64,000 nucleotides of DNA from an uncultured Verrucomicrobiae bacterium (GTDB lineage Bacteria > Verrucomicrobiota > Verrucomicrobiia > Chthoniobacterales > JAATET01), in the NCBI GenBank assembly GCA_963719495.1, contig CAVRCI010000002.1, forward strand, positions 736,001 to 800,000, in the 5' to 3' direction. Below, piece by piece: positions 17,379-46,574 of the stretch; position 1 is the stretch's first letter, and each line of letters opens with the position of its first letter. The notes below the pieces were generated by a model. That model was not told the DNA's origin, searched no databases, and was given only the letters and a program-made list of their open reading frames with translations. The position numbers were made by a program, and so were the translations under genes.

Positions 17379-17495
17379 TTAGAAGCAGGCGGAAGAGTAG
17401 ACTGGCGGCTTTTTTTGGGGCGTCTCCGAACATTATGGTGTTTGCCCTCCGACAGTGCAATCAGGAATAAGGAATGGGGTCAGTCGAGAATGGCA

Positions 17496-19002
17496 CTAAG
17501 ATAAGGGGGATTTGGGAGGATTTTCGACCCCGGATTTTCGGTGAGGGAGCGGTCCCATTTGGCGGCGGGGCTTGGTCAAGAGGCGATAGTTTTTGGGGCG
17601 GCGTTTTCTGACTCTGGGGTTCGGATCGGTCTGGGCGCAGCGGAACGAGATCGCTGGCGATGGCAGAGAGCATGGCGTCGAGGATGGCGGAGATGGTGCG
17701 GGGTTTAGCGTTGGCCCCACTGGTGGCGTTGGCGAACTGACGGACGGTATCGAGAGTGCCCTTGAAGGAGACGCGATCCAGGTCGAGTTCGTGAATCAGG
17801 GCGGCTTTCTGCATGACGCTGCGGACGAGGTTGGAGGCGATGAAGTGCATGAGGAGTTCGCGCTCGATGAGGGCCGGGGATTTGCAGCGCAAGACGTCCA
17901 TGTTGAGAGCGATCTTGATCTCGCGAAAATGGAGTTCGACGCTCCAGCGGCGGAAGTAGAGGGAGGCGAGATCATCGGCGGGAATGGCCGTCTCGGAGAG
18001 CAGCAGGGTGGTCACCAAGGTGACGGTCTGGGTGCGGAAGCCGGGTTGGGCGATGGTGTAGCGCACGACGCGCACTGGAATATCCGCGGGCCAGAGCGCG
18101 AACTCCTCGGGCGTCATCCCGCGTGGTCGCTGCGCGGGGCGCTTCCAGACAATGTTCACATCGAAATTTGCCGACTTGGGAAGCTGAGCACCAATGGCCT
18201 TGCGGAACCGTTTTTCGGGCAAGCGCATCAACGAGTCCACGCCCAGGGAGAGCAGACCGGCAATAGCCCCGAAGGAACAAAATCCCCGGTCGGTGAGAAC
18301 GAGATCGCCACGATTGAAAATGCTCCAAAGGTTGCGAAAAAGCCGGGTCTCATGGGTGAGACGATCGCCCCAATCCGCCTTGAGAAGAGCTCCGGTGAGA
18401 AGGCAGAAAACGCCAACCAGATTGATTGCGGGAAAGCCACACCCCGGCTTCTGACTGCTGCTCTGCGGCCAACGATCTTGATTGGCTTCGGTGTCGGGCA
18501 TGGAGACACCCGTGCCGTCCACGAGCCGTACCTGGCGACCATGCCAGAGAGCGCCGCTGGGAATATTGGCTTCCATGCGCACGGCCAGATGGGTGTTGAT
18601 TCCTTCCAGTGTCGCCACCGGGAGCTTGGCTCGCGCCTGGCAATAAGCGCTGGCATTGCCACTCATGACCTCGGTCTCTGTAGTGCCAGACGGTTTGGAT
18701 TTTCTGCTCACCAAAGCCATGACCTTGCACACGGCTTCGCGACAGGAACCGTTCGGGGTTTGCACCTGATCCAGGAAGCTCCAGAAGACACGTTCGAGCG
18801 AGAAAATGCGCTTGCGGCTGTGAGCACAGCTGGGCGTTGAGCTAAGTAACTTCCGTGGAATGTAGGAGCCAAAGACGTTGACCAACACCGAGAGCGAACC
18901 GCTCTGCCTGAGCTTGGCAAGGGCCTGCGTCAGGGGTGAGACTGGCGGTCGTCCAAAAAGCCGCGAACTAAAATTTGGGAAAAACGGGTTGAAAGAACGC
19001 AT
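17496..19002 (-). CDS. IS4-family DDE transposase, frameshifted near the C-terminus (about 17615)
   Basis: LVDGT, LTDRGFCS, YFRRWSVELHFREIK (YREK motif); C-terminal RVRKRRPKNYRLLTKPR lies in another frame (ORF 17496-17720). Confidence 0.88.
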
Positions 19003-19044
19003 CCAATACAAGTATATATACTTAATCGAAGCCGCCAGTGAATT

Positions 19045-19398
19045 ATGCCGAAAACCGCTAAAAAATCCGACCTCACCGCCCGGGAAATCCGTCGACTCGA
19101 AGCACGCTACAGCACCCTGGCCTCGGAGCTGGGAAGCTTCCCCGAATTGAGTCAGGGAAGCGTGATGCCCCAACCTCCCCGGGCTTGGCGGTGGACCCGC
19201 AAAGTTGCCGGAAAAACCGTCACCGTTGGGCTCAGTCCCCTCAAAGCCCAGAGGATGAAACTAGCCATCGCCAACCATCGAAAGCTGGAAAAGAACATTA
19301 CCGAGATGCGCGAGATAACCCAGAAACTCATCTTGAGAACCCCAGATCCCTCCCCGATTCCCAAACGCGAGCCGCCTCCTAAATCCTCCTTAAGTTAG
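19045..19398 (+). CDS. Small IS-associated protein, DUF6788-like, divergent from the transposase
   Basis: LSQGSV…WRWTRKVAGKTVTVGL; stop codon lies inside the TIR. Confidence 0.7.
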   Translation: MPKTAKKSDLTAREIRRLEARYSTLASELGSFPELSQGSVMPQPPRAWRWTRKVAGKTVTVGLSPLKAQRMKLAIANHRKLEKNITEMREITQKLILRTPDPSPIPKREPPPKSSLS

Positions 19399-19417
19399 TG
19401 CCATTCGGGTCAGTCCG

Positions 19418-19683
19418 GAATGGCACTGTTTTAAGCCGATTTTCGGTGAAGAGCGCAAGGCGGTGAGGACGGCTTGGCAGGCCGTCCCGCGCGAGATCAT
19501 TGGCAACCGGGGTCTTTTCGATCAACGCTGGCGGTGTTGGTGGGGTGAGCGCGAAGTTGTAGCGGCGCGTCTGTGACCGCCGCGAACCATCTCGCTGAGT
19601 TTGCGCACCCGAGTCTGACGGCACCGGCGGTCACAGACCGCCGCTACAGCCCTGCCGACGATCCGCTTAAAACAGTGCCATTC
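19418..19683. mobile_element. MITE with IS4-type ends carrying a REP-like hairpin
   Basis: Both ends GAATGGCACTGTTTTAAGC; internal inverted pair TGTAGCGGCGCGTCTGTGACCGCCG / CGGCGGTCACAGACCGCCGCTACA (about 19559-19648). Confidence 0.8.
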
Positions 19684-19694
19684 CGGACTGACCC

Positions 19695-21249
19695 GAATGG
19701 CACTGCTTTAAGCCAGTTTTCGGGGAGAAAGATGGAGGGAGATCCGCTGATTTGGTAGATTAAAGTGTGAGCAGCAACCAACCATTTCTCAGCGGATTCC
19801 CAACTCAAATATGTGGCAGAATGCGGCGGCGTCTGCAAGCGGTCATCGCGGAGCGACGGAGCGCATTGGCAGAGTCATCCATAGCGACCTACGCGCTGCA
19901 GTTTTCCCGCATCCTGCCGGCCGATTTTTTGGAGTCACTCTCGCTCACGCAACGGGTTCGGCAGTATTGCAATGTGGTCGTCTTCTGGGTGTGGCTGGCT
20001 CAGATTTTAGAGGCCAATGCGTCGCTCTCCAAAGCGGTGAGTCTGGTCCAATGCTGGTGCGGCGAGGCGGGTCTGCCAGTTCCCAGTGGGGATACCGGAG
20101 CCTTCAGTCGGGGTCGGGGACGACTCGGAGAGGCGTTTCTGGCCGGGGCGAGCCAACGCGTGCGCACTCATCTGGGAGCCCGGATCAGGCCCGAGGATAC
20201 TTACAAAGGACACGTGGTCAAATCCATCGACGGCAGCTCGTTGACTCTGGATGACACAGCGTCCAATCAGGAGCAATATCCGCAACCCACGAGCCAGAAA
20301 GCGGGTTGCGGCTTCCCGGTCATGGGCATCATGGGCGTGCTCAACCACGCCCATGGCGGATGGGAGGATTTCGTTGAAGGGCTGCAGAGCGCGCACGATG
20401 CACCGATCTTTCACAAGCTCATGCACTGCTTCGAACCCGGGGATTTACTTTGCGGTGATCGCGCTTTCTGCACCTACGAGTTGATGTCCACTCTGGACCA
20501 AAGGCAGGTCCATACGCTCATGCGTTTGCACCAATCCCGGCACCGCGTCCTGAACTGGAGCCGTGGCAAAAAGCTCGGCAAGCACCAACGCCTGGTTACT
20601 TGGAAGAAGCCCGCTAAACGCCCCGTGGGCAGCACCTTGAATGATTTGGAATGGGCGGCACTACCCGAAGAACTCCAAATCCGTCTCATTCGCTTTGAAT
20701 ACAAGGATCGCGCCGGGAGCAAACGCCGCATGGTCCTGGCCACGACCATGACTGACTCCCTTCGATACGACTGGCGCGAACTGGCCGCCATCTACGCCCA
20801 GCGCTGGGACATCGAACTACGTCTGAGGGACGTGAAAACCACCCTCGCCATGGATCACCTGCGCGTCAAAACGCCCGCGACCGCCCGCAAGACTCTCACG
20901 ATGAGTTTGATCGCCTACAACCTTCTCAAGGCCACCAGCCAGCAAGCCGCGCACAGCACCGGGCAGGACCTCCGACTCATGAGTTTCAAAGCCACTCTGG
21001 ACACCATCGTCGCCAACACCGCTCGCTACCTCCGCCGTCAAAAACACGCCCGCCTCATCAAGGAAATCTGGTCCGACACCATCGAAATGATCGCCGCAAA
21101 AATCATCGATCTCCGCCCCGGCAGGCACGAACCTCGTGCCCAGAAGAAGCGACCTAAAAACTTCAGTTATCTCACCGCTCCTCGCGCTCTCTACCAAGAA
21201 ATCCCTCACCGCGGCAAATCCCGATCCTTCGCTTAATGCAGTGCCATTC
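19695..21249 (+). mobile_element. IS4-family element no. 2
   Basis: TIRs GAATGGCACTGCTTTAAGC / GCTTAATGCAGTGCCATTC; perfect 11-bp DR CGGACTGACCC. Confidence 0.93.
19767..21236 (+). CDS. IS4-family DDE transposase, apparently intact
   Basis: SIDGSS, CGDRAFC, YAQRWDIELRLRDVK. Confidence 0.92.
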   Translation: MSSNQPFLSGFPTQICGRMRRRLQAVIAERRSALAESSIATYALQFSRILPADFLESLSLTQRVRQYCNVVVFWVWLAQILEANASLSKAVSLVQCWCGEAGLPVPSGDTGAFSRGRGRLGEAFLAGASQRVRTHLGARIRPEDTYKGHVVKSIDGSSLTLDDTASNQEQYPQPTSQKAGCGFPVMGIMGVLNHAHGGWEDFVEGLQSAHDAPIFHKLMHCFEPGDLLCGDRAFCTYELMSTLDQRQVHTLMRLHQSRHRVLNWSRGKKLGKHQRLVTWKKPAKRPVGSTLNDLEWAALPEELQIRLIRFEYKDRAGSKRRMVLATTMTDSLRYDWRELAAIYAQRWDIELRLRDVKTTLAMDHLRVKTPATARKTLTMSLIAYNLLKATSQQAAHSTGQDLRLMSFKATLDTIVANTARYLRRQKHARLIKEIWSDTIEMIAAKIIDLRPGRHEPRAQKKRPKNFSYLTAPRALYQEIPHRGKSRSFA

Positions 21250-21360
21250 CGGACTGACCCCTTTGATGACCCCTTTGACTGACCCCTTTGATGAACCGAC
21301 CCCTTCGATGAACCAATGAACGGACTGACTCCTTCGATGACCCCTTCGACAATGAACGGA
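21250..21360 (+). repeat. Degenerate tandem GACCCCTT(T/C)GA repeats mixed with REP-like motif copies
   Basis: Seen directly; continues beyond the IS110 at 22955-23002. Confidence 0.8.
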
Positions 21361-21362
21361 CT

Positions 21363-21661
21363 TCTCTGAAAAAAGGGTCGAAGGGCTGTCAAGGGTCTAA
21401 TTTAGAGGGTTCTTGGACCGAGTGGGGCATGGGACGCAGAAGAAAGCGCCCAATGGGTGACCATCAGGGCAGGGAAAAGCGCGGGCTCTTACATTAAGGG
21501 AAGGAGCCTGTAAACTTGGGACGATAGCGATGCTGGAATCACACTTCTCTGCGGGGCGGGCACTTCTGGCCCCCATCCATTGTGGCGATCAGATCCCCAG
21601 CCCTCCATCCTGACCCAAGGTGCGCCGACTAAGTGCTAAGACTTAGCGACCAACCAGTCGT
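21363..21661 (-). ncRNA. Putative bridge/seek RNA region of the IS110 element (boundaries approximate)
   Basis: Contains GGGTCAG (target left half plus core, 21610-21616) followed by CAGAGAAG (donor left half plus core, 21544-21551). Confidence 0.65.
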
Positions 21662-22873
21662 TCATTGGAGCGGCTGGGGAAATTGTTTTCGAGAAGATCG
21701 ACTTTGGCGTCCCTGGCGTTTTTTCGGGGTTTTCATGTTGCCAGGTTTTTCCTTGGCCAAGCCTGGTTTGGACGAGATTTGTTCTTCCGCGTTGCGGCTC
21801 TGGCTTTGAAGTTTTTGGGACTCGGGAAAGTTCGTGTAGGAACGCCCCTGGGTCAAGAGGCTGCAGGTGATGCGGGCCATCCGGCGGGCGGTGGCTAGGA
21901 TGGCGGTGTTGGCTTTCTTGCCGTGAGCGCGTTTGTTTTTGTAGTAGTCGCCGAAGTAGGGCGAGCAGCCAACAGCCACCCAGGCGGCCTCGACGAAGGC
22001 CCAACGCAGCCATTTGTTGCATTGGGGCAGCAGGCGTCCGTGGTAGGTCTTGCCGCCGCTGCTGCTCGTCGCCGGGCAGAGTCCCGCGTAGCCGCAGAGC
22101 TTCTGCGCGGAGGCAAAGCGAGAGATGTCGTCGATCTCGGCGACGACAACCGCGGCCAGGATGGGTCCCATCCCGGGGAGACTGCAGACGTGGGTGAGCT
22201 CGGGGCTTTGGCTCATGAGATCTTTGAGCGCTGCCTCGTCCTGCCGGATGCGAGCGACCAACTCGTTGTGGAGGGCGAGTTGCTGGGTCAGGAGCATGCC
22301 TGCTGGTTCGGCCAACTCGAGCTTCTCCAAGAACCCCAGCCCCTTCTTGCCGAAGAGATCGCTACAGACAGGAAGTTTGAGTTCGTGCTGGCCGCCGAGT
22401 AACCGGTGGATGCGGTTGCGCAGCATCGTGCGTTGGCGCACGAAGAAACAGCGCTGGCGCAGCACGTTCTTGATGTCGCGGGTCTCGCGACTGGGGATGT
22501 GGACGCTCGAAATCAAATTGGCCCGCAACAGATTGGCCAACGCTCGGGCGTCGATCTTATCGGTCTTGATTTGGGCCTCGGCGATGATCCGCGTCTTAAA
22601 CGGGTTGGCCAACACGATGTTCTCGGCGGGCATCACCTGCTCGAGAATCTCGTAGAGCCAGTGCCAGTTCATGCTCGCTTCGAAGACGATCCGGCACCCC
22701 GGCCACCGCTCGACGAGCCGCCCAAAATCTCCGCTGATCGCGTGCTCGATGCGCCCTTGGCCGAGCACCTCGCCGTGGCCATCAACCACGCAATAGACGC
22801 TGTATCGCTTGTGATAATCGATGCCAATGAAGCTCGATTCCGTCGGTAGGCTTTTTGGTTGGGTTTTCATCAC
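21662..22873 (-). CDS. IS110-family DEDD recombinase/transposase
   Basis: FIGIDYHK, VFEAS, KTDKIDA, LPGMG, YAGLCP..SSSGG. Confidence 0.95.
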   Translation of the reverse strand: MMKTQPKSLPTESSFIGIDYHKRYSVYCVVDGHGEVLGQGRIEHAISGDFGRLVERWPGCRIVFEASMNWHWLYEILEQVMPAENIVLANPFKTRIIAEAQIKTDKIDARALANLLRANLISSVHIPSRETRDIKNVLRQRCFFVRQRTMLRNRIHRLLGGQHELKLPVCSDLFGKKGLGFLEKLELAEPAGMLLTQQLALHNELVARIRQDEAALKDLMSQSPELTHVCSLPGMGPILAAVVVAEIDDISRFASAQKLCGYAGLCPATSSSGGKTYHGRLLPQCNKWLRWAFVEAAWVAVGCSPYFGDYYKNKRAHGKKANTAILATARRMARITCSLLTQGRSYTNFPESQKLQSQSRNAEEQISSKPGLAKEKPGNMKTPKKRQGRQSRSSRKQFPQPLQ

Positions 22874-23002
22874 CCCAACCTACACCATTCATTTCATCAG
22901 GCTCTCCGGGCCCCACTTCCCAGCAACGCTCTATTCATCAGCCTTTCATGCCGCCTGACCCCTTCGAGACCCCTTCGAGACCCCTTCGACGGGCCCTTCG
23001 AC

Positions 23003-23178
23003 AGGAAATGCTCTGCCACGCCTCGCTTCTCACCACGCAGGTTCACACCCGCGTCGTCCCCTCCGATCTCCAGCGCGTCCACAAGTTCACCGCCCCCAGC
23101 GAACGCCGTGGCGTAATCGACGTCCCCACCTTCGAACTCCACGCCTGGCGTGATCGCAAGAACCGTCACCGCTCCTGA
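23003..23178 (+). pseudogene. C-terminal remnant of a XerC/D-like tyrosine recombinase
   Basis: QEMLCHASLLTTQVHTRV..DLQRVH matches QELLGHxSxxTTQxYT with G to C and catalytic Y to H. Confidence 0.75.
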
Positions 23179-23215
23179 TCCGGTCTCGCTCCAACTCCTT
23201 CCCAGCCGTAATCTC

Positions 23216-23698
23216 ATGCCCGTGCGCACGCTCCCGCTCTACCTCGACACCTCCGTCATCGGCGGCTACTTCGACGACGAGTTCGAGGAGGCTACCCGCG
23301 AACTCTGGCGGCAGAAAAAAGCCGGGCGCTTCCGGTTTACGACCTCGGCGGTGACCCGGCAGGAAATCGAGGAAGCTCCGGCCGACGTGCGCGAGTTGAT
23401 GGAAGAGACGTTCCCCGACGCCGATCTCCTTCCGCTCACCGCCGAGGCCATCGAGCTGGCCCGCGCCTACCTCGACGCCGCGGTCGTCCCGGAAACCTAC
23501 GCCGACGACGCCCGGCATGTCGCCATCGCGGTCGTTCACGAACTCCATCTGCTCGTTAGCTGGAACTTCCGTCACATGGTCAACGTCCGCCGATCGGATG
23601 CGTTCAACGCCGTGAACCTCTTGCAGGGTTACCCCCCAATCCGTATCGTTAGTCCGTTGGAACTCATCTATGACGACGAAGAAGAACAAACGCTTTGA
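23216..23698 (+). CDS. PIN-domain protein (putative toxin)
   Basis: LYLDTSVIGGYFDDEF, DDARHVAIA, LVSWNFRHMVN. Confidence 0.88.
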   Translation: MPVRTLPLYLDTSVIGGYFDDEFEEATRELWRQKKAGRFRFTTSAVTRQEIEEAPADVRELMEETFPDADLLPLTAEAIELARAYLDAAVVPETYADDARHVAIAVVHELHLLVSWNFRHMVNVRRSDAFNAVNLLQGYPPIRIVSPLELIYDDEEEQTL

Positions 23699-23840
23699 TG
23701 CTGTCGCCGAATCCCGCAAATGGCGGATCAAAACCGGCGCGATTTTGGCGACCATGACCCCCGAAGAACAGATGGCGTTCCTCAACCGGCGCATCCCCAA
23801 GAACCAAGCCAGGAAACGCCTCGCTTCTGCTTCTTCCTAG
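23670..23840 (+). CDS. 56-aa protein overlapping the PIN gene, putative antitoxin (not in the ORF track)
   Basis: Manual translation MTTKKNKRFDAVAESRKWRIKTGAILATMTPEEQMAFLNRRIPKNQARKRLASASS. Confidence 0.65.
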   Translation: MTTKKNKRFDAVAESRKWRIKTGAILATMTPEEQMAFLNRRIPKNQARKRLASASS

Positions 23841-24053
23841 CCGTTCCTCACTGTTATGAGCACGTTGGCCGCCCTTCGAGAACACTCGGGGCAAGCCGTC
23901 GATTGTTTTGCTCCCCCCTACGCATTAAACCTTGTCCCCATTGACATCACTTTCGAGAAGGTCGACGACAACGAGGAGCTTAGCGATAACAAGAAGCCCG
24001 TCGAATGGGATCAGGCGGGCGTGCCAACTAAGTGGGAATGGATGCCGGGCCGC

Positions 24054-24114
24054 GGCCAGTCGGAGGGGTCAGTCCGGGCCAGTCGGAGGGGTCAGTCCGT
24101 GCATTGGTTCAGAA
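24054..24114 (-). repeat. REP-like motif (reverse) preceded by a 23-bp tandem duplication
   Basis: GGCCAGTCGGAGGGGTCAGTCCG twice, then TGCATTGGTTCAGAA. Confidence 0.8.
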
Positions 24115-24298
24115 CCCCCCTCCTCACGCACGCTCGCTAACAGCAAGTGCCCCCCGAAATCCCAGCCGGTCCGCCGCGTTCGACCATGACATCACACAAC
24201 AGCGGCACCGTATAGCCGTGCCTGATGCGGCCCCTCCCTAAAGGGACCCTCCGCGGCACCGCTCGCCAGAGCGCTGGGTCGGGAAGGTCTCGCGCTAG

Positions 24299-25510
24299 TA
24301 TACTGTAACGCGCTATCTTGCGTATTGAGTCGCGCTCATCGGAGCGGTATGTGGGTGGATGGCAAATCGATATCGCATCACTTTAACCGAGTCCGAACGT
24401 GAGTATTTGAGCGCGCTGGGCCGGACTTCCAAAACCGACGCCAAGCGATGTGTGCATGCTCGAACGCTTTTACTTTGCGACGTTGGCGAGCACGCGCCAG
24501 GTAGAACAGTGTGGAGGGTGGCGGATGTCGCCAGTGCTCTGGGGATCGGCGTTCGCACCGTCGAACACATCAAGGAGCGCTTCGTGGAGGATGGGTTGGA
24601 GGCAGCGCTTGGACGCAAGCCGAGAACCGGTCCTCCGAGGATTACCTTCGATGGAGCCTTTGACGCGAGGGTGACCGCCTTGGCGTGCTCCGATCCTCCC
24701 GATGGACGCGCCCGGTGGACCGTCCGTCTTCTCGCCGACAAAGTCGTGGAACTCAAGATTGCCCCCAGCGTTTCGACGATGACCATTCAGCGGTCTCTAA
24801 AAAAAACGAATTACGCCCTCATCTGAGCAAATATTGGAAGATCCCTCCAGACGGCAGCGCCGCTTTCGTTGCTTGCATGGAGGACGTTCTCGAACTCTAT
24901 CACGCACCCTACGATGCGCTCTTCCCCCTCGTCTGTATGGATGAGTCGAGCAAGCAACTCGTTGGCGAAGTCCACGCGCCCATCGCCAGCGCTCCCGGCA
25001 GGGCGCGGATCGAAGACCACGAATACGTCCGCAACGGCGTGGCCGAAATTTTCCTCGAAGTCGAGCCGCTGGGCGGACGCAGACATCTGGAAATCACCGA
25101 ACGCCGCACCCGCATCCAATGGGCTCAGTTCATTCGCAGCATGCTCGACGAACGCTATCCCCACGCGACCAAGGTGCGCTTGGTCATGGACAACCTCAAT
25201 ACGCACAACATCGCTTCGCTCTACGAAGCCTTCCCTCCCCAGGAAGCTCGCCGACTGGCCCAACGCCTTGAGATCCACTACACCCCAAAACATGGCAGTT
25301 GGCTCAATGTCGCCGAGATCGAGTTCAGTGTCCTTCAGTCCCAATGCCTGAATCGTCGCATTCCTAACATTGAAACGCTGCGCTCGGAAGTCGCGGCTTG
25401 GGAGGCCGCCCGGAACGAAGCCGCCCGCACCACTTCGTGGCGCTTCACCACCGCCGACGCGCGGGTCAAATTGAGACGGTTATATCCGCAGCTTTAGTCG
25501 TTACAGGATA
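24299..25510 (+). mobile_element. IS630-family element
   Basis: Ends TATACTGTAACG / CGTTACAGGATA, flanked by CTAG at 24295 and 25511. Confidence 0.9.
24359..25497 (+). CDS. IS630 transposase, OrfA/OrfB joined by a probable -1 frameshift
   Basis: HTH ORF 24359-24826; DDE ORF (CMDE, VMDNLNTH, HGSWLNVAEIE); A8 run at about 24799-24806. Confidence 0.9.
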
Positions 25511-26105
25511 CTAGCAGCCTGTCGGACTTAGAGGGACGACAAAAGGAGAGGAAGCTGTCAGCTTGGGGAAATGGCAGTGCGATACGTCAACGTCGATCAT
25601 GAAACCCCGTTACTTTTGCCGCCGAACCTTCGGGACTGGGTTCCGGCGGGCCACATGGTTCATTTTGTGATGGACGCGGTGGGAGCGTTGGACCTTGGAG
25701 CCGCGAAGAAGAACGAACGAGGGACGGGGTCGGCGCAGTATCCGCCGTCGATGATGCTTGGGTTGCTGATTTACAGCTATGCCACGGGGACTTTCGGCAG
25801 TCGGCGCATAGAGACACTCACGCATGAGAACGTGGCCGTTCGCTACCTGTGTGCCGAACACCATCCCGACCACGACTCGATTTGCAAGTTTCGGCGCGAG
25901 AACGCGGAGTTGCTGAGCAGCAGCTTTCACCAAGTGCTCGAGCTGGCAGCCGGGTCCGGAGTCCTGAAGGTGGGAGAGCTGAGCGTCTCGCTCGACGGCA
26001 CCAAACTTCTGGCCAAAGCCGAAGAGGCCGACAGCACCCCACCGGCCGACGGGTTGGAGATCCCGCAGGAAATCAAGCTCCGAGATGACCGATTGGCCAA
26101 GCTCC

Positions 26106-28011
26106 CAGGGCATTTGGCTTGAAGCGCGAGGAAGCTGATAGGTAGGGGAAAAGAGAAATGGCTAGACAAAAGCGCGTCGAAAAGCTGAACTACGGTGGTG
26201 AAAAAGCAGGAGACCAGGAAAGGCGAGGGCATTGAAAGCAAGGCAACGCGATTGGAAGTGAAGGTAGCGCATTCGGCGGGGGACTGGCGCCGAGCGAAAG
26301 AGGCCCTTGGGCGAGAGCATGGGTTGGGAGCTGGGAGCGAGGCGGGAGACCGGCTCTGTCAGTTGGTAATGGAGGAAGGGAAGCTTGCCGGGGTAATGGT
26401 GTGGTGTGCGGCGGCGTGGCATTTGAAGGATCGGGACGAAGCGGTGGGATGGGATGCGGTGACGCGCTCGGAGCGGCTCAAGCTGGTGGTGCAGCTGCGA
26501 CGCTTTCTGGTTTTGGAAGAGGCACGACGGCCGAACCTGGCCAGCCAATGTCTTGGGGCCGGGATGCGGGAACTGGTGGAGCAATGGGAAAAGGCCCACG
26601 GATACCGACCACTTCTGGCCGAAAGCTTCAGCGATCCAGAAAGCCATGCGGGAACGGTTTACAAAGCGACGAACTGGACGCAGGCGGGAACGACGAAGGG
26701 GTTTTCGCAAGACCACACCGACTACTACATCCCCAACGGGAGGCCCAAGAAGCTGTGGCTCAAAGAGCTCGCGCCCAAGGCCTGCGAGTTGATGAGCGCG
26801 CGCGAGTTGCCCGAAGCCAGCAAGGGGGCCTTGGTCGGACGCGGGGGAGCCCGCAGTCCGCTCAAGAACGCCGGACTCAAAAGCCTGCGCGACGCCTTGA
26901 GGGAGGTGCCCGATCCGCGTCACCCCAAAAGCCGCCGCCACCCCCTATCGGCGATGTTGACCCTGATCTCGCTGGGGTTGCTCATGGGAGCGCGCGACGT
27001 GCTCGATATCTGGAGGAAAGTGGCCTGCCTTTCCCAGAGCCAAAGAGAGGTGATCGGCCTGCGGGTGCGCGACAAGCAAAGTAAGCGGCTCAAGATGCCC
27101 GGCTACGATGCGCTCAACGACCTGCTGGCCGCCGTGGAACCCCACGCCTACGCCCATGCGCTGACGGCCTGGTTGCAAGCCAACGCGGGAGTGCTGCCCC
27201 GCAGCCTGGCCCTGGATGGCAAAAGCGTGGGCGATGGACGCTGCGGCATGATCGTGACCCTTTGCCGTCATGAAGACGGGCGTCCGGTGGCCATGATCCC
27301 GGCCAGCGGAAAAAAAGAAGACTGCGAAGTCTCCGAAGCCCGCGCCCTGCTCTCCAATCCCGGGGTGGAACTGGTCAACGCGCTGGTCACGGCCGACCCG
27401 CTTCACAACAAAGAGGCCACCGCGCGAGTCATCCTGGAAAAGGGAGGCGACTACCTCATCGGCACAAAAGCAAATACCTCCAAACGATTGGAGGCAGCCA
27501 CCCGCGCCCTGGAGGGCTCCCCTTTTTTGACCTGAGCTGCGAAGGCGATCACGGGCGCATCGACTCCCGCAAAGCCGCCGTCCAACCCATCTCCCCAGTC
27601 TCCGCCGGGCTGCCCGGTGCCCGCTCCGCCATCACCGTGCAGCGCGACTGGCAGGAAAAGAAAGACCCCCACCAAACGCCCAAGAGCCATACCCGTATCT
27701 TCCTTTCCAGCCTGAAACCGGAAGAAAAATCCCGTTCCACCCGCGCCGTTCGCGAGCACTGGAGCATCGAGAACCGCAATCACCACAAACGCGACGCCTC
27801 CGCCTGGCAAGAAGATCGGCACCGACATCGCAGACCAAAAGCTGCCCTCAACCTCGCCCTCACCCGCAACGTCCTGCTCGCCCTCATTCCCTTTGAGCAC
27901 GGGCAACCCCTCGCTCACTTCTTCGAACTCTACCACCGACACCCAGCAAAAGCTCTCAACCTTATCCTTCACGCTCGCCCCGCCCTATGACCCTTCCAGC
28001 CAAACGCCCTG
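26106..28011 (+). mobile_element. ISAs1-family element nested in IS1182
   Basis: IRs CAGGGCATTTGGCT / AGCCAAACGCCCTG; 10-bp DR GCCAAGCTCC (26096-26105, 28012-28021). Confidence 0.92.
26195..27990 (+). CDS. DUF4338-fused ISAs1 transposase with a -1 frameshift at CCCCTTTTTT (about 27519-27528)
   Basis: N-terminal RRFLVL…PNLASQCL…PLLAESF; VPDPR, LALDGK, VTADPLH; the -1 frame continues DHGRIDSR and VREHWSIENRNH. Confidence 0.85.
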
Positions 28012-28974
28012 GCCAAGCTCCAAGAAGCCAAGACCGCCTTGGAAGCCCGGGCCAAAGTCCGCTTCGAGCAGGAAAGCGCGGCCCACGCCGAAAAGCTCGC
28101 CGCCCGCGCTCAAAAGCATCAAAGCACCGGGCGCATGGCCCGGGGCAAGGAGCCCGCGCTGCCCATCGAAGGCCCTGGACCCAAGGACCAGTATAATTTT
28201 ACCGACCCCGAGAGCCGAATCATGAAGGACAAAGGCAGCTTCGCGCAGTGCTACAATGCGCAGGCCGCCGTGGAGGTCGAAACCATGCTCATCGTCGGCG
28301 CACACCTCACCGACGCACCCAACGACAAGCAACAACTCCAACCCGGGCTCGAGTCAGTGAGTCCGGCCGTGGGCAGCGTGGCCCGCGTGCTCGTTGACAG
28401 CGGCTACTACAGCCAGGAAGCGGTCGCAGCCGCGGAAAGCCGGGACGGGAACCCGAAAGTTTACGCCGCACAAAAACGTCAGCCGCACGGGCGCAGCGTC
28501 GCCGATCTGGAGCAACGAGAAGACCCTCCCGCGCCGCCGCCCGACGCGACGTCGGCCGAAATCATGGCCCACCGACTGGCCACCGCATCGGGCCGCAACC
28601 TTTACGCCCTGCGTAAACAGACCGTCGAACCAGTCTTTAGCATCATCAAAGAGGCCATGGGATTCCGGCGATTGCTATTGCGTGGCCAAGAGAAAGCCGC
28701 ACTGGAATGGTCGCTTGTGACCACCGCCTACAACCTCAGACGCCTCTTCGGACTCGGAATGAAGGTCGCAAGAGCGTAAAGAGTCCGCCATCACGCCACC
28801 ATCCGTGCTGGCAGAGAGTCCAAAACGCTCTTCACCGGGTTCCCTCGCTCCAATCCCATCTTTTTCGTCATCGCCGCCGGCCAATCCAACCTCGTTTCAA
28901 GAAACTTCCACGCCAACGCTCTGGCTCCAAGTCCGACAGGCTGCTAGGCCGCAATACATCGAAGGGTCAGATCA

Positions 28975-29152
28975 AAACGCCACTGTTTTGCGGGTTTTCG
29001 GCAGGAATGTGCAAGATTCCATTCGCTTTGAACTCCGGCCCTTTCGAGGAATACCCTCCGTGCATGCTGCTCTGGATGCTCTGACTCATGATCTCGAACC
29101 TTGCTCAACAGAGTAAAAAACTGCCAACGGTGTGCTTAAAGCAGTGCCATTC
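28975..29152. mobile_element. MITE with IS4-type ends (left end degenerate)
   Basis: Right end GCTTAAAGCAGTGCCATTC; left end AAACGCCACTGTTTT; flanks GGGTCAGATCA / GGGTCAGGTCA. Confidence 0.7.
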
Positions 29153-29617
29153 GGGTCAGGTCATTCCTTTGACACATCGGTTGGACAAACGGGTCTGGAA
29201 CAGGGTTTTCGGAAGGGTCGCCCGATGTGCCATTGTGATTTGCCAATCCCGTTTCCTTTTCCTCGCGGGCCGGATTCACGGGATTGGAAGGATTGAGTTC
29301 CTGTTTTTTCTGGATGAATGCCCGTTCTCCCAAGGGGTAAGGGAGTCATTTCCCTGACTTCCTCATCATCCTGTCAATCCCGTAAATCCTGTCTCGAATT
29401 CCTCTCGAGATTAAAGGGTTGGGGAAGCGCGCTGGGCGCTCCGTGGTAGCGGCTCGGTGCGTTCGGATGACGATCGGACTCGTGTGAGTGACTGCGGGGT
29501 CTATCGCGGAGTATCGTGGGTTTTCCTGTTGCTGGACGGAACTGGTGACCGGAAGTGGGCACCCGGCGGCGCGGCTGCCCTACCCTGGACGGGGTGCGGC
29601 TTCGCCGCTGAATTTTT

Positions 29618-30412
29618 TTACTCGGTCGTTTGGAGGAGGAAGGCCCGGTCGGCTGCTTCGATGGGGTCACTGATGGGGATCGCGGGGGCGATGGGGTCGG
29701 CTGCTGGGGCGGGGATCGACTGTTCGAGCGTGCTGGGTTGCTCGTCGGCTAAGTCTTCCTGACGCGGTGCCTCGCTCGGGAGAATGGTGATGGGGGCGTC
29801 GAGGGTGGGGGTCAGGGGGTTGTTCGCGGGAGTCGGGCTGACGTTGGCGGCGAGCGGGAGGCCGCGGACTTCGAATTCGGTGCGGGTGGTCTCGGCGAGG
29901 ACTTCTTCGGCGGATTTGAGGGGCTCGGTGGCGGCGGGCGGCGGCTGGGGTTTATCCTGATCCTCGCGCAGGCGGATGACGTTGATGGTGAGGGCGTAGA
30001 TGAAGACGCCGAGGGCGACGAGGACGACGAGGACCGCAACGCCGATGAGCGTGGGCAGGAGCGGGCTTCGCTTGGGGCGGTTGACGATGTTGGGGCGGAG
30101 GGGGGGGAGATCGCTTTCGGCGTAGCGGGTGTAGGCGTAGCCTTCGACGGCGACCTGGCCGCTGTCGGGGAGGAGTTCGCGCACTTTTTTCAGGGGAACG
30201 CCGAGGTATTTGGCGTAGGCGATGATGAACATGCGCGCGTAGCTGGGGTTGCTGAAGGAGGAGAGGTCGTCGTTCTCCATGTCGCGGATGCGCTGGGCGC
30301 GCATGCGGGTTTCCTTGGCGGCCTTTTCAACGGGAATGCCTTTGCTTTCGCGCTCGCTGGAGAGGAGGACGCCGATGGAGAGGGCGAGTTGGCCGGTGGT
30401 GTCGCTTTTCAT
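29618..30412 (-). CDS. RodZ-like XRE helix-turn-helix membrane protein
   Basis: ERESKGIPVEKAAKETRM…YARMFIIAYAKYLG, one TM segment; start overlaps the ftsK stop. Confidence 0.8.
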   Translation of the reverse strand: MKSDTTGQLALSIGVLLSSERESKGIPVEKAAKETRMRAQRIRDMENDDLSSFSNPSYARMFIIAYAKYLGVPLKKVRELLPDSGQVAVEGYAYTRYAESDLPPLRPNIVNRPKRSPLLPTLIGVAVLVVLVALGVFIYALTINVIRLREDQDKPQPPPAATEPLKSAEEVLAETTRTEFEVRGLPLAANVSPTPANNPLTPTLDAPITILPSEAPRQEDLADEQPSTLEQSIPAPAADPIAPAIPISDPIEAADRAFLLQTTE

Positions 30413-34620: not shown

Positions 34621-34647
34621 TTCTGAACCAATGAACGGACTGACCCC
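34621..34647 (+). repeat. REP-like motif copy between convergent genes
   Basis: Identical to 16457-16483. Confidence 0.85.
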
Positions 34648-34656
34648 TCTGGGTGG

Positions 34657-37160: not shown

Positions 37161-37236
<76 letters not shown>

Positions 37237-38612: not shown

Positions 38613-38980
38613 GCGATCACGCCGGACGCTTCCCAGATCCCAGCCGGAGAAGGGGCGCTGCCGTCGCGGCTGTTGACGTAGCTGAAGTTGAAGTCGGCTT
38701 GATACTTCGCGGCGAGGTTGGCGTTGCGGTCGAGTGACCAGACGCCGCCGTTGCGGAAGTATTTCGCGTAGACCGCGGTGGCGGGGCTGTTGGTGTTTTC
38801 ACAGATGACGATGAAGTCCTTGGTGACCGCAAGGTTGTCGATGGAGACGGGGTAGTCGGTGCCGTTGTTGGTGTTGCCACCCGTGTAGGTGGGGATCACC
38901 TGCGCGCCGCCGTTGGCGGTGTAGAACGGGCCGGTGTAGGCCCCGACGATCGTCCCGCCGGGTGTGACGATCTGGCCCGC
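38613..38980 (-). pseudogene. Internal fragment of a PhoX-like / beta-propeller protein
   Basis: IDNLAVTKDFIVICEN…GIWEASGVI, joined out of frame to the ATPase fragment. Confidence 0.5.
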
Positions 38981-39154
38981 ATTGTTTTTGTGACGAAATC
39001 GTCGTTGATTTGGTGCCGTCGGTGCGGCTGGGAGCGGGACGGTTCCCCCAAAAACGTGGGGAGGAAGAACTCAAGAGTCAGCGATCCTTCACTCCGTTCA
39101 AGCTGACAGGATTGGGGGGACGGGGAGCGCTGCGCTCTCCGGTCCGCCCAGCAC

Positions 39155-40171: not shown

Positions 40172-40196
40172 TGGTTTCTAGATTGCCAGGGTGGGC

Positions 40197-41717: not shown

Positions 41718-41842
41718 GTCGGGAAGGTAGCGGGGTTTCCGTCGGCGGAGCCATAAGTTTCTCCCAGCGCGGCCCGGAAACGTAAAGACGCCCGTAATTT
41801 TGGTCCCAACCGAGTCGGATGAGCGCGACGATCCGGGGGAAA

Positions 41843-43408
41843 TCAGACTCCCCGGGGGGCGACCAGGCGCTCGACGCGGCCGAGGACGAGGTCGACGGCG
41901 ATCGCCAGGAGAGCGGCGGGGATGGCTCCGGTGAGGATGAGGTTGGCGTCGTTGAGTTGGAGACCGGTGAGGATGGGCTCGCCGAGGCCGCCCGCTCCGA
42001 CGAAGGCGGCGAGGGTGGCGACGCCGACTCCGATAACGGTCGACGTGCGGACGCCGGCCATGATCGTGGGGGTGGCGAGGGGGAACTGGACGATTCGGAG
42101 GACTTGGAAGCGGGTGAGACCCATGCCGCGGGCGGCTTCGAGGAGGTCGGCGTCGACGCCGTTGATGCCGGTGAACGTGTTGCGAACGATGGGGAGGAGG
42201 GCGTAGAGGAAGAGAGCGGCGATGGCGGCCGGGAAGCCGAGGCCGAGGATCGGGATCATGAGTGCGAGGAGGGCGAGACTGGGAATCGTCTGAATGACGC
42301 CAGTGGTCCAGAGGACGGGCGGGGCGAGCCGACGCCAGTGAATGATGGCGATGCCGAGCGGAACGCCGACCGCGCAGGCGAGGAGGACGGAAAGGCCGGT
42401 GAGTTGGAGGTGCTCCCAGGTGAGCCGGGCCGTGACGCCAGCGCGCGAGAGCATGAGGGGTCCGAAACCGCGGGCGCGGGGAGCGGTGGATGCGACTTTG
42501 GGTGCTTCGGAACGGGCGTCGAGGTCGGCGAGTCGGCCGCTCGCGCGGAGGGTGAGAAACTCGGTGGCGACGTCGGCGACGCTGCGACCGCGGCCTTCGA
42601 CTTCGGCGTTGAGTTGGCGCACGCGGGCGTCGGGGAGGGTGAACGCGAGTCCGGCGAGGGCGGGTGCGATCTCGGGGTGGCGGGCGAGGATTTCGGAGCG
42701 AACGAGGGGGGCGGAATTGTAGGCGGGGAAGAATTGGCGATCGTCGAGGAGGACGCGGAGGTCGAGTTCGGCGAGTTTGCCGTCGGTGTTGTAGACGTCG
42801 ATGAGGTCGAGCTGGCCGGCGGCAATGGCGGGGTAGGCGAGGCCGTGCTCGATGCCGCGGATGTCCGGGAAAGTGAGTTCGTAGGCGGCGCGGAGGCCCG
42901 GCCAGCCGTCGGGACGGTTGAGGAATTCGTGCCCGAATCCGGCGCGGAGGTCGGGGTGGTCGGCCAGGTCGGAGATGCGGGTGATGCCGAGGGCCTCGGC
43001 CTGCTCGTCCCGCATGGCGAGGGCGTAGGTGTTGTTGGCGCCGAAGGGAGCGAGCCAGGTGAGGTCGAAGCGGTCGGTGAACTCGGTCCGGACGCGGTGG
43101 AGCGTGCGCATCGGGTCGCCGGTGGGCGATTCCTCGAGGATGGCGACGAGGCCGGTGCCGGTGTATTCGGCGTAGAGGTCGAGGGCTCCCTCCTGGAGCG
43201 CGGAGAAACAGATCATGGTCCCGCCGAGGCCGAGGCGGCGTTCGACGGTGAGGTCGGTCTCGGTCTCGATGACCTGCGCCATAATTTCGCCGAGGAGGCG
43301 AGATTCGGTGAAGTTTTTCGATCCGACGACGATCGAGTCGGATTGGGCGGTGGCGGTCGCGAGCACGCCGAACAGGGTGGCAATGAGCAGGGTGGCGATG
43401 CGGAGCAT
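41843..43408 (-). CDS. Glycine betaine/osmoprotectant-type ABC transporter, fused substrate-binding protein and permease
   Basis: VGSKNFTES, YAEYTGTG, NNTYALA, TDG; QTIPSLAL, AARGMG, VGAGGLG; start could be 43429. Confidence 0.92.
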   Translation of the reverse strand: MLRIATLLIATLFGVLATATAQSDSIVVGSKNFTESRLLGEIMAQVIETETDLTVERRLGLGGTMICFSALQEGALDLYAEYTGTGLVAILEESPTGDPMRTLHRVRTEFTDRFDLTWLAPFGANNTYALAMRDEQAEALGITRISDLADHPDLRAGFGHEFLNRPDGWPGLRAAYELTFPDIRGIEHGLAYPAIAAGQLDLIDVYNTDGKLAELDLRVLLDDRQFFPAYNSAPLVRSEILARHPEIAPALAGLAFTLPDARVRQLNAEVEGRGRSVADVATEFLTLRASGRLADLDARSEAPKVASTAPRARGFGPLMLSRAGVTARLTWEHLQLTGLSVLLACAVGVPLGIAIIHWRRLAPPVLWTTGVIQTIPSLALLALMIPILGLGFPAAIAALFLYALLPIVRNTFTGINGVDADLLEAARGMGLTRFQVLRIVQFPLATPTIMAGVRTSTVIGVGVATLAAFVGAGGLGEPILTGLQLNDANLILTGAIPAALLAIAVDLVLGRVERLVAPRGV

Positions 43409-43425
43409 GGGATAATTCTTAACGA

Positions 43426-44178
43426 TCAATTCGCCGTGCCGACTTGGGTCTTGATGAACTCGCGAACGAAATCGTTGGCGGGATTTTCGCGGAGATCGGA
43501 TTCGGTGCCGAGCTGGACGAGGCGACCGCGGTCCATGATGGCGACGCGGTCGCCGAGGTCGAAGGCTTCGGCGAGATCGTGGGTGACGAGGATGACGGTC
43601 TTACCGACTTTGGCCTGGAGGTCGCGGAATTCGGCGTGGAGCTGGCCGCGGGTGATCGGGTCGAGCGCGCCGAAGGGTTCGTCCATCAGAATGGTGTCCG
43701 GGTCGAGGGCGAGCGCGCGGGCCACGCCGATGCGCTGACGCTGACCGCCGGAGAGCTCGCGCGGGAGGCGGTGGGCGAACTCGGCGGGCGGAAGGCCGAC
43801 GAGTCCGAGCAGGTCGTGAACGCGGTCGCGGGTGCGGGGTTTTTCCCAGCCCTCGAGGTCGCAGAGGAGGCCGACGTTGCGACCAACGGTGAGGTGGGGG
43901 AAGAGCCCGCCGCTCTGGATGACGTAACCGATGCGTCGGCGGAGCGCGATCTCGTCGAGGTCACGGACGTTGGTCCCGCCGAGCAGAATCGTGCCACCGG
44001 AGGGTTCGATGAGACGATTGATCATCTTCATGACCGTCGTCTTGCCGGAGCCGCTGGTTCCGATGAGGCAGAGGGTCTCGTGCTCTTGGATCGTGAAGCT
44101 CACGCGGTCGACGGCAACGACAGCGTCGGAGCCGCGATGGGCGGGGAAGGTCTTGGAGATGTCGCGGAGTTCGATCAT
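43426..44178 (-). CDS. Osmoprotectant-type ABC transporter ATP-binding protein
   Basis: GTSGSGKT, LSGGQRQR, MDEPFGALDPITR. Confidence 0.93.
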   Translation of the reverse strand: MIELRDISKTFPAHRGSDAVVAVDRVSFTIQEHETLCLIGTSGSGKTTVMKMINRLIEPSGGTILLGGTNVRDLDEIALRRRIGYVIQSGGLFPHLTVGRNVGLLCDLEGWEKPRTRDRVHDLLGLVGLPPAEFAHRLPRELSGGQRQRIGVARALALDPDTILMDEPFGALDPITRGQLHAEFRDLQAKVGKTVILVTHDLAEAFDLGDRVAIMDRGRLVQLGTESDLRENPANDFVREFIKTQVGTAN

Positions 44179-44438
44179 GGGGCGGGTTTAGCGGTGGGGC
44201 TTTGAGGGGCGGCGGACGAATCGAGCCCCGAAGTGAATGGTAGCAAGTGTCGCCGTGGGCTGGCGAGGCGCCTCCTTCGGCGGGTTCATCGACAACCAAT
44301 TCTTCATGGGTCGACAAGGTTTGGACGGCCAGATACATCAAATTGAAAGGCCTGCTTCCTCGACGAATATGCAGAATCTCTGAGGCAATACACGCCATCG
44401 GCGTCGATTTTGGACGAAAGTAGCCTTGGGTAATCGGC

Positions 44439-44966
44439 TTATTTCGGGAGCGCGCCGGTGATCAAAAATTCTACGAAGCGAATTCGGGTCAGCTTCTCCA
44501 CCGATTCCGACTCAAGGCCGTCGCTGGAACTCTTCATGATCTCAAAGAAGACGGAACCCGGGCTTTCGATGCCGGCGGCTTCTGCTGATTTCACGGTCAA
44601 GGCCCGCGTGCCACGTTGAAGGGTTTCCGCCCAAGTCTCCCGACTTGAGATCACGCGGTCATAAAGAACGTCACCGGCTGAAAAATCGAAGAGCGCGCCC
44701 TGAGTCCAAATCATTTCGACAACCCCCTTCGCTTCTTTCGCGTCCTTCTTGAATACGCGTTGTGTCATCCGAATATCGAGAGCGGTCTTGAAAAATTTAC
44801 TGACAGGAAATGCCCACCCAACAGCGTAACCTTTCTCGAAATCGGAGAATATCTCCGTCAATCGCTTGCTGCTTTGGCACGCTCGTTGGAGAAGCTCCAG
44901 CGATCTTTGTTGATCTGGATTCAGCGAGGCAGGCGATTGGGTATTGAATTCTAGTTGGTCAGTCAT
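44439..44966 (-). CDS. Hypothetical protein (lower GC)
   Basis: 175-aa ORF; ATGA overlap with the BRCT gene. Confidence 0.6.
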   Translation of the reverse strand: MTDQLEFNTQSPASLNPDQQRSLELLQRACQSSKRLTEIFSDFEKGYAVGWAFPVSKFFKTALDIRMTQRVFKKDAKEAKGVVEMIWTQGALFDFSAGDVLYDRVISSRETWAETLQRGTRALTVKSAEAAGIESPGSVFFEIMKSSSDGLESESVEKLTRIRFVEFLITGALPK

Positions 44967-45601
44967 CGAAGGAAGCGAGTAAAGGTCTCTTCGCTAATGA
45001 TCGAAAGCTCCGATCCAGCGTTCCGTAGTTCGATCCCACGTTCGATTTTCGTTCCATAGTTGGAATACTTCCAATCCCGGCTGACAAAATGCCCGATGAC
45101 GAGGTAGCGAGTGGCGTGACGAGGCGTGCTGCTATGTTTTCCGCCCCTGGCGACGATAGCCTCCACAACCTTTGCTCGTGTTCCCAAGGCGAAGCGTCCG
45201 GTTGTGCAGAATTCAGAATTGAAGCTGAGTGCCGGAGGTTGGGGGGCGCAAAGTGGCAGTCGCGTCGAAGGGCTCTTTGCTTGCGGCGAGAAGGTCTGTT
45301 CAACTTCACCGCCAATGATCATCTCCAATATCGCCTGAAGCTCCTTAAATTCCTCGTCCGTTACGACTTCGTCCTCAAATACTTTTCCAACTCGGTCGGA
45401 TATTTCAGAGAACGGCCAAATTCCCTCCACCTCACGATACCTCGAGACCCAGTTGCGAAAAACATTTGCCTCAGCCCGATTGACTTCACCGTCCGCAAGG
45501 ATTCCCTCGCAGAGGCCGCGCAATTGGTCGAAGGCTTTTGAAACGCAGTTGTCCCACGAAGCTTTCGATCGGACAATCGGTTGCCCGTCAGAATCCCGCA
45601 A
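44963..45601 (-). CDS. BRCT-domain protein with a TerB-like N-terminal helical region
   Basis: LRGLCEGILADGEVNRAEA; FCTTGRF..GTR…YLVIG…WKYSNYGTKIERG. Confidence 0.8.
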   Translation of the reverse strand: MRDSDGQPIVRSKASWDNCVSKAFDQLRGLCEGILADGEVNRAEANVFRNWVSRYREVEGIWPFSEISDRVGKVFEDEVVTDEEFKELQAILEMIIGGEVEQTFSPQAKSPSTRLPLCAPQPPALSFNSEFCTTGRFALGTRAKVVEAIVARGGKHSSTPRHATRYLVIGHFVSRDWKYSNYGTKIERGIELRNAGSELSIISEETFTRFLR

Positions 45602-46139
45602 ATACGAGTCGTCGTTACTTATTTAGAGAGTCTATTTCCTGGGCATTTTTCCGAGAGGGGAAAGAGTGCGGGAACTTCGAAAGGTTCGTCAACTATGATC
45701 AGCTTCTGCTCGCCACCCTTCGGGAAATCGACGGATTCGAGTGGAGCTTATCCGGGCCGCCCTGCCCACCGGTGAGGATGTCTTGTCAAACCTCCGATAC
45801 GATCTGCCAGTTGGACGAGGAGACGCAGAATTCATCCCGATCTCTTATAGCCTGAATTCGATCAAACAGGCGCCGGACTCGATGCGGTTATTGATGTCGG
45901 GTCAGAGCGGCAACAACCGCGATCTCAAACAGCGATTCGATGGGTTGGTGATCCTACGCCAGATGATGAGTGGGAAGGATCGGTGGCGAGGGAGCGGTCA
46001 GCGAAATTGTGAGCTTTGGTGATGATGCCCGCCTGACCGGACAGTGGCCGATTCCTAACATCCGAGTCTTCGGCTTCGCGAAGCCCGGGGGTTTGAACCG
46101 ACTTCTCGTCGCTCAACAGTCGGTCTTCCACGCTGACCC

Positions 46140-46419
46140 GAATGGCACTGCTTTAAGCGGTTCGTCGGCGGAAAACGGGTTACTGGTTCACCGGATGACT
46201 TGAGTCCAAACTGGCTTATTTACCCTCGCAGGGCAGTTGCGCGCAGTGTGCAGAAAGTCAGAGATTCTTCGGATTACCTCAGAATGACAGCTTGGGGGGA
46301 CGGGAGACATTCGTTGCGAAGCAACGTCTTCGTCCAAACCTGTCATCCTGAATGCAATGAAGGATCTCTGACTTTTCAGGACGAGAGCGGTCGAAAACTC
46401 GCTTAAAACAGTGCCATTC
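46140..46419. mobile_element. 280-bp MITE with IS4-type ends
   Basis: TIRs GAATGGCACTGCTTTAAGCG / CGCTTAAAACAGTGCCATTC; perfect 11-bp DR CACGCTGACCC; internal hairpin pair 46257-46372. Confidence 0.92.
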
Positions 46420-46574
46420 CACGCTGACCCATTTGGTGCGCGATGCCCGGGACGCTTCGCTGGCGATCAGTCAAAGGTAAGTCTGGGTCTTCGGCTGCAG
46501 CCGGGCGATTCGTGAAAACACCGCTGTTTTTCGCGCTGCCGCCAACCGAGGATTCGACGCGCTGCGGCTACAGA

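Follow-up and report, generated by a model that had tools for sequence, protein, structure and literature searches.

Why do insertion sequences (IS) of unrelated families pile up beside one short repeat? The question is raised by a 64,000-nt stretch of the genome of an uncultured Verrucomicrobiae bacterium (G000:C2:736001-800000, where G000 is the genome under study; hereafter the window), in which elements of the IS4 and IS110 families, together with miniature inverted-repeat transposable elements (MITEs) that have IS4-type ends, lie against the heptamer CTGACCC. The heptamer is found 28 times in the window, against 10.6 occurrences expected from the genome average. Using sequence alone, we analysed genome G000, a 401-genome sample of its phylum (G000 included) and, for IS4 ends, loci L001-L144. 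Our analyses indicate that the repeat forms the termini of TIRtrons, and that the window probably holds an insertion hot spot that renews itself on these TIRtron ends; a motif shared in this way helps to explain the pile-up of IS4 elements, MITEs and IS110.

The CTGACCC repeats form families of non-palindromic repeats, and their core lies in the terminal repeats of TIRtrons. In particular, G000 has six long Y1 (HuH) genes, whose products (315-356 aa) all contain the HUH and Y---NP motifs and bear a C-terminal extension of ~200 aa that gave no helix-turn-helix family match at E 0.05. Inverted GGGGTC[AG]G repeats (GGGGTCAG) flank five of the six genes at both ends and the sixth, within 1.5 kb, upstream only; one of the flanking pairs, of family B, reads GGGGTCGG. 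By these features of sequence and position the repeat is the terminal repeat of a TIRtron (TIRYT, Y1 subclass 2.1), matching the consensus GGGGWSAS. Its identity as a GTAG- or CGTC-tagged repetitive extragenic palindromic (REP) sequence was rejected, since by inspection the copies have neither tag nor hairpin and they form the ends of Y1 genes. Full copies number 114 in the genome, and there are 48 tandem arrays. Of 95 pairs of neighbouring copies, 30 agree over exactly 5 bases of their outer flank and 47 over 5-6 bases, whereas the shared outer flank of unlinked repeat pairs peaks at 0 (79 of 151). The array unit is a fixed 5-base flank plus an inside portion of variable length, sometimes with a piece of IS4 or IS110. 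Such arrays may have been made by a nick 5 bases outside GGGG and partial copying, and slippage could also have produced them. The fixed 5-base flank, seen in the window at 21250-21362 and 22955-23001 as well as genome-wide, may mark the position at which TIRYT cuts. Separately, a Y1_Tnp domain occurs in frame within three long housekeeping open reading frames (ORFs; C10:2659, C14:101784 and C13:379694), which, from a reading of their sequences, resemble LeuRS, RecG and AlaRS.

The IS4-type elements show a marked preference for this core. All nine exact matches to their end sequence GAATGGCACT in the window, which come from five elements (IS4a, IS4b and three MITEs), have CTGACCC in register in the 11-bp flank, as do 26 of the 40 exact matches genome-wide and 17 of the 31 outside the window (both counted by eye). 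From 146 fuzzy matches we retained 64 curated, true-looking ends, C2:148672 having been dropped before the flanks were scored; 37 of these carry the exact heptamer and 48 carry it with at most one mismatch, and random 11-mers would match in register at frequencies of 1.1e-4 and 2.8e-3, respectively. (Note that the two ends of one element are not independent, and that no correction for this would close the gap to the random expectation.) At the other loci, where 164 ends remained after 7 of 171 had been removed as duplicates and short or N-bearing flanks had been filtered earlier, GGGWCAG was present exactly at 55 ends and within one mismatch at 101; in six shifted registers the same 164 ends gave 0-1 exact matches and 0-2 within one mismatch. 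The flanks form a perfect 11-bp duplication in 13 of 26 paired elements in G000 and in 12 of 35 pairs elsewhere. The target consensus consists of an A-rich arm, a G, GGGWCAG, four loose bases and a T-rich arm, and it is asymmetric because the centre base goes with the better half-site (31:8 and 13:38; Fisher p=5e-7).

The GAATGGCACT end type was detected in 24 of the 401 genomes, and the close relatives of IS4b are Verrucomicrobiota records. Genome G306 has 11 copies of a single element, whose ends carry the motif exactly in 14 of 21 cases and within one mismatch in 19 of 21, in both orientations. Flanks match in only 3 of 10 paired copies there, and several 11-mers flank one copy on its left and a different copy on its right; such reciprocally swapped flanks are what recombination between copies would leave. 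The Y1 matches in G306 were all broken or partial, the best one being interrupted by a stop codon, and no GGGGWCAG was found within 2 kb of it. Because G306, in which no intact TIRYT was found, keeps the same target, an intrinsic preference is favoured: the specificity looks like a property of the IS4 transposase itself that needs no TIRYT. For the same reason, evolutionary convergence of IS4 on the TIRtron repeat is unproven. In a structure model, the IS4b transposase is closest to Tn5 transposase (pLDDT 82, with a low-confidence basic tail at 455-489) and has no visible extra targeting domain; its sequence had no match in the PDB.

By a rough gene model in which 75% of the genome is coding, 34 of 36 junction motifs fall in non-coding DNA. 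When G000 was scored with a matrix built from the other genomes, TIRtron repeat cores made up 31 of the top 50 sites; with a matrix of the core alone they made up none of the top 50, so the arms are needed for the preference for TIRtron repeats. Flanks of TIRtron type were recognised by pattern at 15 of 26 elements, or at 16 of 26 with a 178-bp MITE that was added by eye.

IS4 insertion does not follow a fixed orientation. An earlier note on this DNA had proposed a single orientation of IS4 insertions with respect to the motif, a version that we consider very improbable. In its favour, the reading direction of both transposase genes in the window is that of CTGACCC, all three IS4a copies have the same orientation, and relatives lean the same way, with 11 same, 7 opposite, 3 unclear and 1 conflicting among 22 other loci with a transposase match. 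However, two of the three IS4a copies lie within one duplicated 4.2-kb segment, the lean among relatives gives p=0.48, IS4b-type ends in G000 divide into 3 same and 3 opposite, and the related element IS4c is opposite in 3 of 3 cases. Likewise, in G306 the left flanks are 3 same and 7 opposite and the right flanks 5 to 5, and a contig with IS4b in metagenome run X1 shows the opposite orientation. A strict rule is already refuted by both orientations in G000, in relatives and in G306; a mild bias could still be present. (The duplicated segment, C14:27360-31601 and C13:505699-509941, is 99.1% identical and has one end near a TIRtron repeat.) The genome-wide and wider comparison that the note had called for brought out enrichment of CTGACCC but no fixed orientation of IS4. 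Its statement that every GAATGGCACT-ended element is flanked by 11-mers with CTGACCC is accurate for the window, where the four 11-mers it quoted are correct, and too broad for the genome, where 27 of the 64 curated ends lack the exact heptamer; its list named four elements and omitted a fifth, the MITE at 19418-19683 with inverted flanks. Its view that these DDE transposases are sequence-specific is borne out in G000, elsewhere and in G306.

The IS110-family element (21363..22954, minus strand) reaches the same core by what appears to be another route. It is IS1111-like, with a recombinase gene at 21662-22873 (PF01548 and PF02371; NF033542, 227 bits), and relatives at E 1e-100 or better occur in 6 of the 401 genomes, G000 included. 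Its limits and its two-base core were set by five full copies and one fragment (chance matches to the end pattern at C15, C4:252294 and C8 were ignored), and its sites all read GA-C[CT]-GACCC, with family A here, family B in four cases and a D-like repeat in one. The junctions in the window are 21361-21362 and 22955-22961. On the recombinase strand the left junction reads GGGGTCAG in 10 of 11 parsed loci, the eleventh being seen in a separate junction reading (at locus L153 the upstream end is absent); because the left junctions all read GGGGTCAG, the element is orientation-specific, and as far as these sequences go the orientation rule holds for IS110 only. The right junction is always CT, even when the target side is CC, and this CT therefore comes from the donor. 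In the window the donor-side core CT is followed by GACCCC and tandem flank pieces (22955..23001, plus strand), and the motif survives the insertion. The non-coding ends measure ~300 bp downstream (right) versus ~80 bp on the left, and the sub-terminal inverted repeats, read by eye, are 5 bp in G000 and 9/10 in G433, compared with the 7-17 bp of the IS1111 criterion.

Target choice by this element is predicted to be guided by a bridge RNA (21530..21682, minus strand), with a left target guide at 21656-21664, a right target guide, GGGTCAG, at 21610-21616, and donor guides, also on the minus strand, at ~21582-21589 and 21544-21551. The region is conserved in six genomes, where a stem closes an internal loop, and 11 of 35 pairs in the fold show two-sided changes. 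Within the predicted loop, a left guide ending in GACT and the right guide GGGTCAG reproduce the target-loop layout of bridge RNAs. The left guides match the best target of their own genome at 8/9 positions in four genomes and at 7/9 in G003; across genomes, G000 and G003, which have targets in common, give similar scores, and other pairs reach 4-6/9. The predicted right donor guide matches the element end. The CTGACCC at 21610 was rejected as an IS110 flank, being internal to the element and identical to the predicted right target guide. An Rfam scan of 16000-30000 returned one chance match only, below threshold, and no IS110 circle joint was present among the joints listed in the run contigs. 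TIRYT genes adjoin 2 of 12 IS110 loci. A PIN-domain gene lies beside the element at 23150-23800.

An IS4 insertion doubles the core, and an IS110 insertion keeps GGGGTCAG at its left end; with both types of insertion retaining the motif, the site would renew itself, each event leaving the next target. IS4 ends indeed sit directly on an IS110-type left end at G000 C4, L003, L006, L080 and in one contig of run X1. The motif explains the stack of IS4, MITEs and IS110 at 17477-22961 but not that of IS630, IS1182 and ISAs1 elements at ~24300-28950, and genome-wide 0 of 23 ends of the latter families lie at the motif, so that the note's use of CTGACCC to explain stacked insertions applies to the first stack alone. 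The note was also right that IS110 uses the motif at its junctions and that IS4 shares the core with an IS110, which matches it through its predicted guide RNA; its reading of the repeat as REP gives way to a TIRtron end, and its picture of a safe harbour suits the mostly non-coding sites but not the TIRtron ends and genes that insertions have themselves broken. In the second stack, IS630 and an IS1182-like element abut at a common CTAG (25510-25513), and both families are found at CTAG elsewhere in the genome. An ISAs1-like element (26106-28011, three copies) interrupts the IS1182-like element; its ORF fuses a DruA/Mom-like N-terminal part to the start of the transposase.

In the explanation that we propose, TIRtron ends (long Y1/HuH genes flanked by inverted repeats, dispersed in the 114 full copies and often in arrays) would supply the targets. 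Transposases of subgroup IS4 with GAATGGCACT ends, together with their MITEs, show by their flanks that they cut an 11-bp target made of a strong half-site, (G)GGGWCAG, and a looser second half, in either orientation; the transposase dimer itself would read the target, without RNA and without TIRYT. Family-A repeats would be the best-scoring sites and non-coding, so that insertions there would be frequent and tolerated. The IS1111-like recombinase would be led to the C[CT] core by its predicted bridge RNA and insert there in a single orientation; as the covariation supports, the right guide, GGGUCAG, would stay constant on the motif and the left guide would change with the inner repeat sequence. 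Recombination between IS copies may then have shuffled or inverted flanks, which would account for the mismatches and inversions among the window's "duplications".

Several observations weigh against this explanation. Among the ends elsewhere, 47 of 164 lie more than two mismatches from GGGWCAG, and other targets are used by G368 and by the GAATGGCACTACC ('ACC'-ended) subtype, so that no single specificity holds for the whole end type. The 16 of 26 flanks of TIRtron type exceed the share expected from the matrix (30% among non-coding sites, p ~1e-3; 14% overall), which suggests that the motif alone may not suffice; the events behind this comparison are dependent, coding and non-coding sites were told apart by a rough gene model, and insertions into TIRtron repeats may have given rise to the matrix in the first place. 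On the IS110 side, the bridge-RNA alignment comprises six sequences only, the left guide of G000 agrees with family-A targets at just 5/9 positions unless a one-base bulge is allowed, and the left donor guide is weak, matching 4-5/5 in a sliding test and not clearly above the cross-genome level.

The excess at TIRtron repeats raises the possibility that the IS4 clade is a dedicated TIRtron parasite, its half-site having evolved to GGGGWSAS and its transposase being recruited by the TIRYT protein or by the DNA state that TIRYT creates. We regard this as unlikely. The IS4 consensus does share the W degeneracy of the published TIRtron motif, 70% of ends have a G at -1, the target is asymmetric, TIRYT matches occur in 6 of 144 loci (279 kb), and the sister end type lands in GTAG-REP-like repeats. 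However, G306 keeps the specificity at unique sites, 138 of the 144 loci have no TIRYT nearby (these loci are short, and a TIRYT could lie elsewhere in the genome), 10-11 of the 26 G000 elements are at non-TIRtron sites, and the IS4b model lacks an extra domain. It is extremely improbable that the motif belongs to the ends of the elements themselves, or that the pattern arose from selection or assembly alone, even though the duplication is not perfect in 13 of 26 elements and no public contig covers the entire stretch: the four free bases of the duplication vary among sites yet agree on both sides in 13 of 26 elements, the motif is found in either orientation at the same end, ~720 other CTGACCC sites in the genome are empty, other IS families have none of their 23 ends at the motif, and new junctions carrying it appear in runs X1 and X3 of the metagenome scan, whose counts cover the matches listed only.

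Beyond the self-renewing hot spot that we favour, a bolder and rather doubtful reading is that three enzymes act on one 8-bp motif, TIRYT nicking 5 bases outside GGGG and re-copying ends, and a DDE clade and an RNA-guided clade having specialised there, with the DDE clade switching between TIRtron ends and GTAG-REP-like sites. If true, this would locate the TIRYT cut site and provide a single-protein cut-and-paste transposase family with a natural, switchable specificity of 7-8 bp.

The elements of the window are as follows. IS4a (17488..19406, 1919 bp, minus strand; transposase from 19002; three genome copies) belongs to subgroup IS4 of the IS4 family, and its transposase scores 194 bits with NF033592 (cut-off 115). 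Compared with the two other copies it has one additional base close to the 3' end, so that the reading frame passes through the end repeat. A divergent accessory ORF (DUF6788; 19045..19398, plus strand) is missing from IS4b, and a role for it as a targeting factor is therefore unlikely. At the right end of IS4a lies the target core GGGGTCAGTCGA (17476..17487, minus strand), of repeat family D type and differing by two bases from the other flank, which is the 11-mer CGGACTGACCC (19407..19417, minus-strand reading) that IS4a has in common with a 266-bp MITE (19418..19683). That MITE, which has nine paired copies in the genome, is probably a recombinant, its flanks being perfectly inverted. The left target duplication of IS4b, CGGACTGACCC (19684..19694, plus strand), leads into IS4b itself (19695..21249, 1555 bp, plus strand), whose transposase (19767-21236, 489 aa) scores 157 bits with NF033592, above the cut-off, and has YREK at 343. 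A 178-bp MITE (28975-29152) lies between GGGTCAGATCA and GGGTCAGGTCA (28964..29178); its left end is degenerate (AAACGCCACT) and its right flank runs on as a family-B-like repeat. The 280-bp MITE (46140-46419; 46129..46430 with flanks) lies outside any TIRtron repeat, between perfect copies of CACGCTGACCC. Only it and IS4b have perfect duplications in the window; the 178-bp MITE has one mismatch between its flanks.

The two transposases are 31% identical, and both have DDE and Y(2)R(3)E(6)K (YFRRWSVELHFREIK in IS4a and YAQRWDIELRLRDVK in IS4b). By eye the ends fit the subgroup pattern -AATR--------WTW, one IS4a end having ATA there, which is also WTW. IS4b is within the 1400-1650 bp and single ORF typical of subgroup IS4, IS4a with its DUF6788 ORF being longer, and the 11-bp duplications fit the repeat length of 10-13 bp. 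The MITE interiors hold pairs of host repeats, a GTAG-REP-like inverted pair in the one at 19418-19683 and a GTCAT-type hairpin pair in the one at 46140-46419. The sister end type GAATGGCACTACC (L160, L163, L166, L170, L171, L173, L177, L182; G070, G073, G154, G157) has 10-bp duplications, and its ends often lie in GTAG-REP-like G[AG]GACG sites (by eye).

Between IS4b and IS110 lies a tandem array of TIRtron repeat pieces (21250..21362, plus strand), each with the same 5-base outer flank, that ends in the target-side core CT of IS110 (21361-21362). Three further family-A sites in the window are empty: a solo repeat, TTCTGAACCAATGAACGGACTGACCCC, with a partial tandem copy (16457..16501, plus strand), the same repeat as flanks the Y1 gene at C11:169361; a repeat with a partial tandem copy (24066..24115, minus strand); and a solo repeat (34621..34647, plus strand). 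A frameshifted fragment of a type I restriction subunit (15727-16440) ends beside the first.

These findings identify what two widespread, apparently undescribed IS groups insert into, and show how a hot spot can renew itself. They let protein-read and RNA-read recognition be compared directly on the same 11 bases, and the IS4 clade could provide a compact, single-protein tool whose specificity is ~7 bp. The fixed 5-base array flank provides a testable cut site for TIRYT, an activity left open in the available text of published work. The sharing of a repeat by IS4 and IS110 elements, and the targeting of other transposons' ends by IS1111 elements, are known already; the TIRtron target and the elements described here are apparently new, IS targeting of TIRtron repeats not having been found described in the open-access literature (ISfinder and most subscription papers being outside that scope).

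IS231A, of the IS4 family, also inserts at an 11-bp target that is G-rich on one side and C-rich on the other, GGG(N)5CCC, and has a hot spot in the terminal repeat of another element, Tn4430. It belongs to another subgroup (CAT ends), and its target is symmetric and less specific; it is not known to have an IS110 partner. In its available text, the account of subgroup IS4 by De Palmenaer et al. gives ends of the form -AATR--------WTW, YREK, repeats of 10-13 bp and a "spectacular apparent insertion specificity" in the target arms (PMC2266710). Here the information lies mainly within the duplicated 11-mer; a listed member such as ISRba1 may have the same target.

In the accessible portions of the published accounts, TIRtrons have long Y1 genes (TIRYT) and non-hairpin inverted repeats, GGGGWSAS (PMC3733652), as members of TnpA-Y1 subclass 2.1 (10.1101/279083), and occur, as here, in single, paired and grouped copies; those portions mention no IS targeting and no fixed 5-base array flank, and family B here reads GGGGTCGG. 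The IS1111 group with bridge or seek RNA includes, in the sections available, IS4321 and IS5075 (Tn21 terminal repeats), ISPa11 (REP) and ISKpn4 (attC) (PMC11208160, PMC11187229), with the target-loop layout described in PMC11208160 and the orientation specificity of the IS110 family in PMC11187229. Our IS110 resembles these in its long downstream non-coding end, two guides that share the core, single orientation and target in another element's end, and differs in its TIRtron-motif target, a target CT core opposite to the recombinase gene, a left guide that overlaps the stop codon and short sub-terminal repeats. The closest parallel is found in Sinorhizobium meliloti, where, according to the available text, ISRm22 (IS4 family, IS4Sa) and ISRm19 (IS110) insert in REPs (PMC1525189). 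There too an IS4-family DDE element and an IS110 use the repeats of one genome, and imperfect duplications are ascribed to recombination between copies. However, in that text the target is a palindromic REP and the direct repeats are 6 bp, whereas here the target is a non-palindromic TIRtron end, the duplication is 11 bp, the DDE elements are of subgroup IS4, and both families cut within the same 11 bases.

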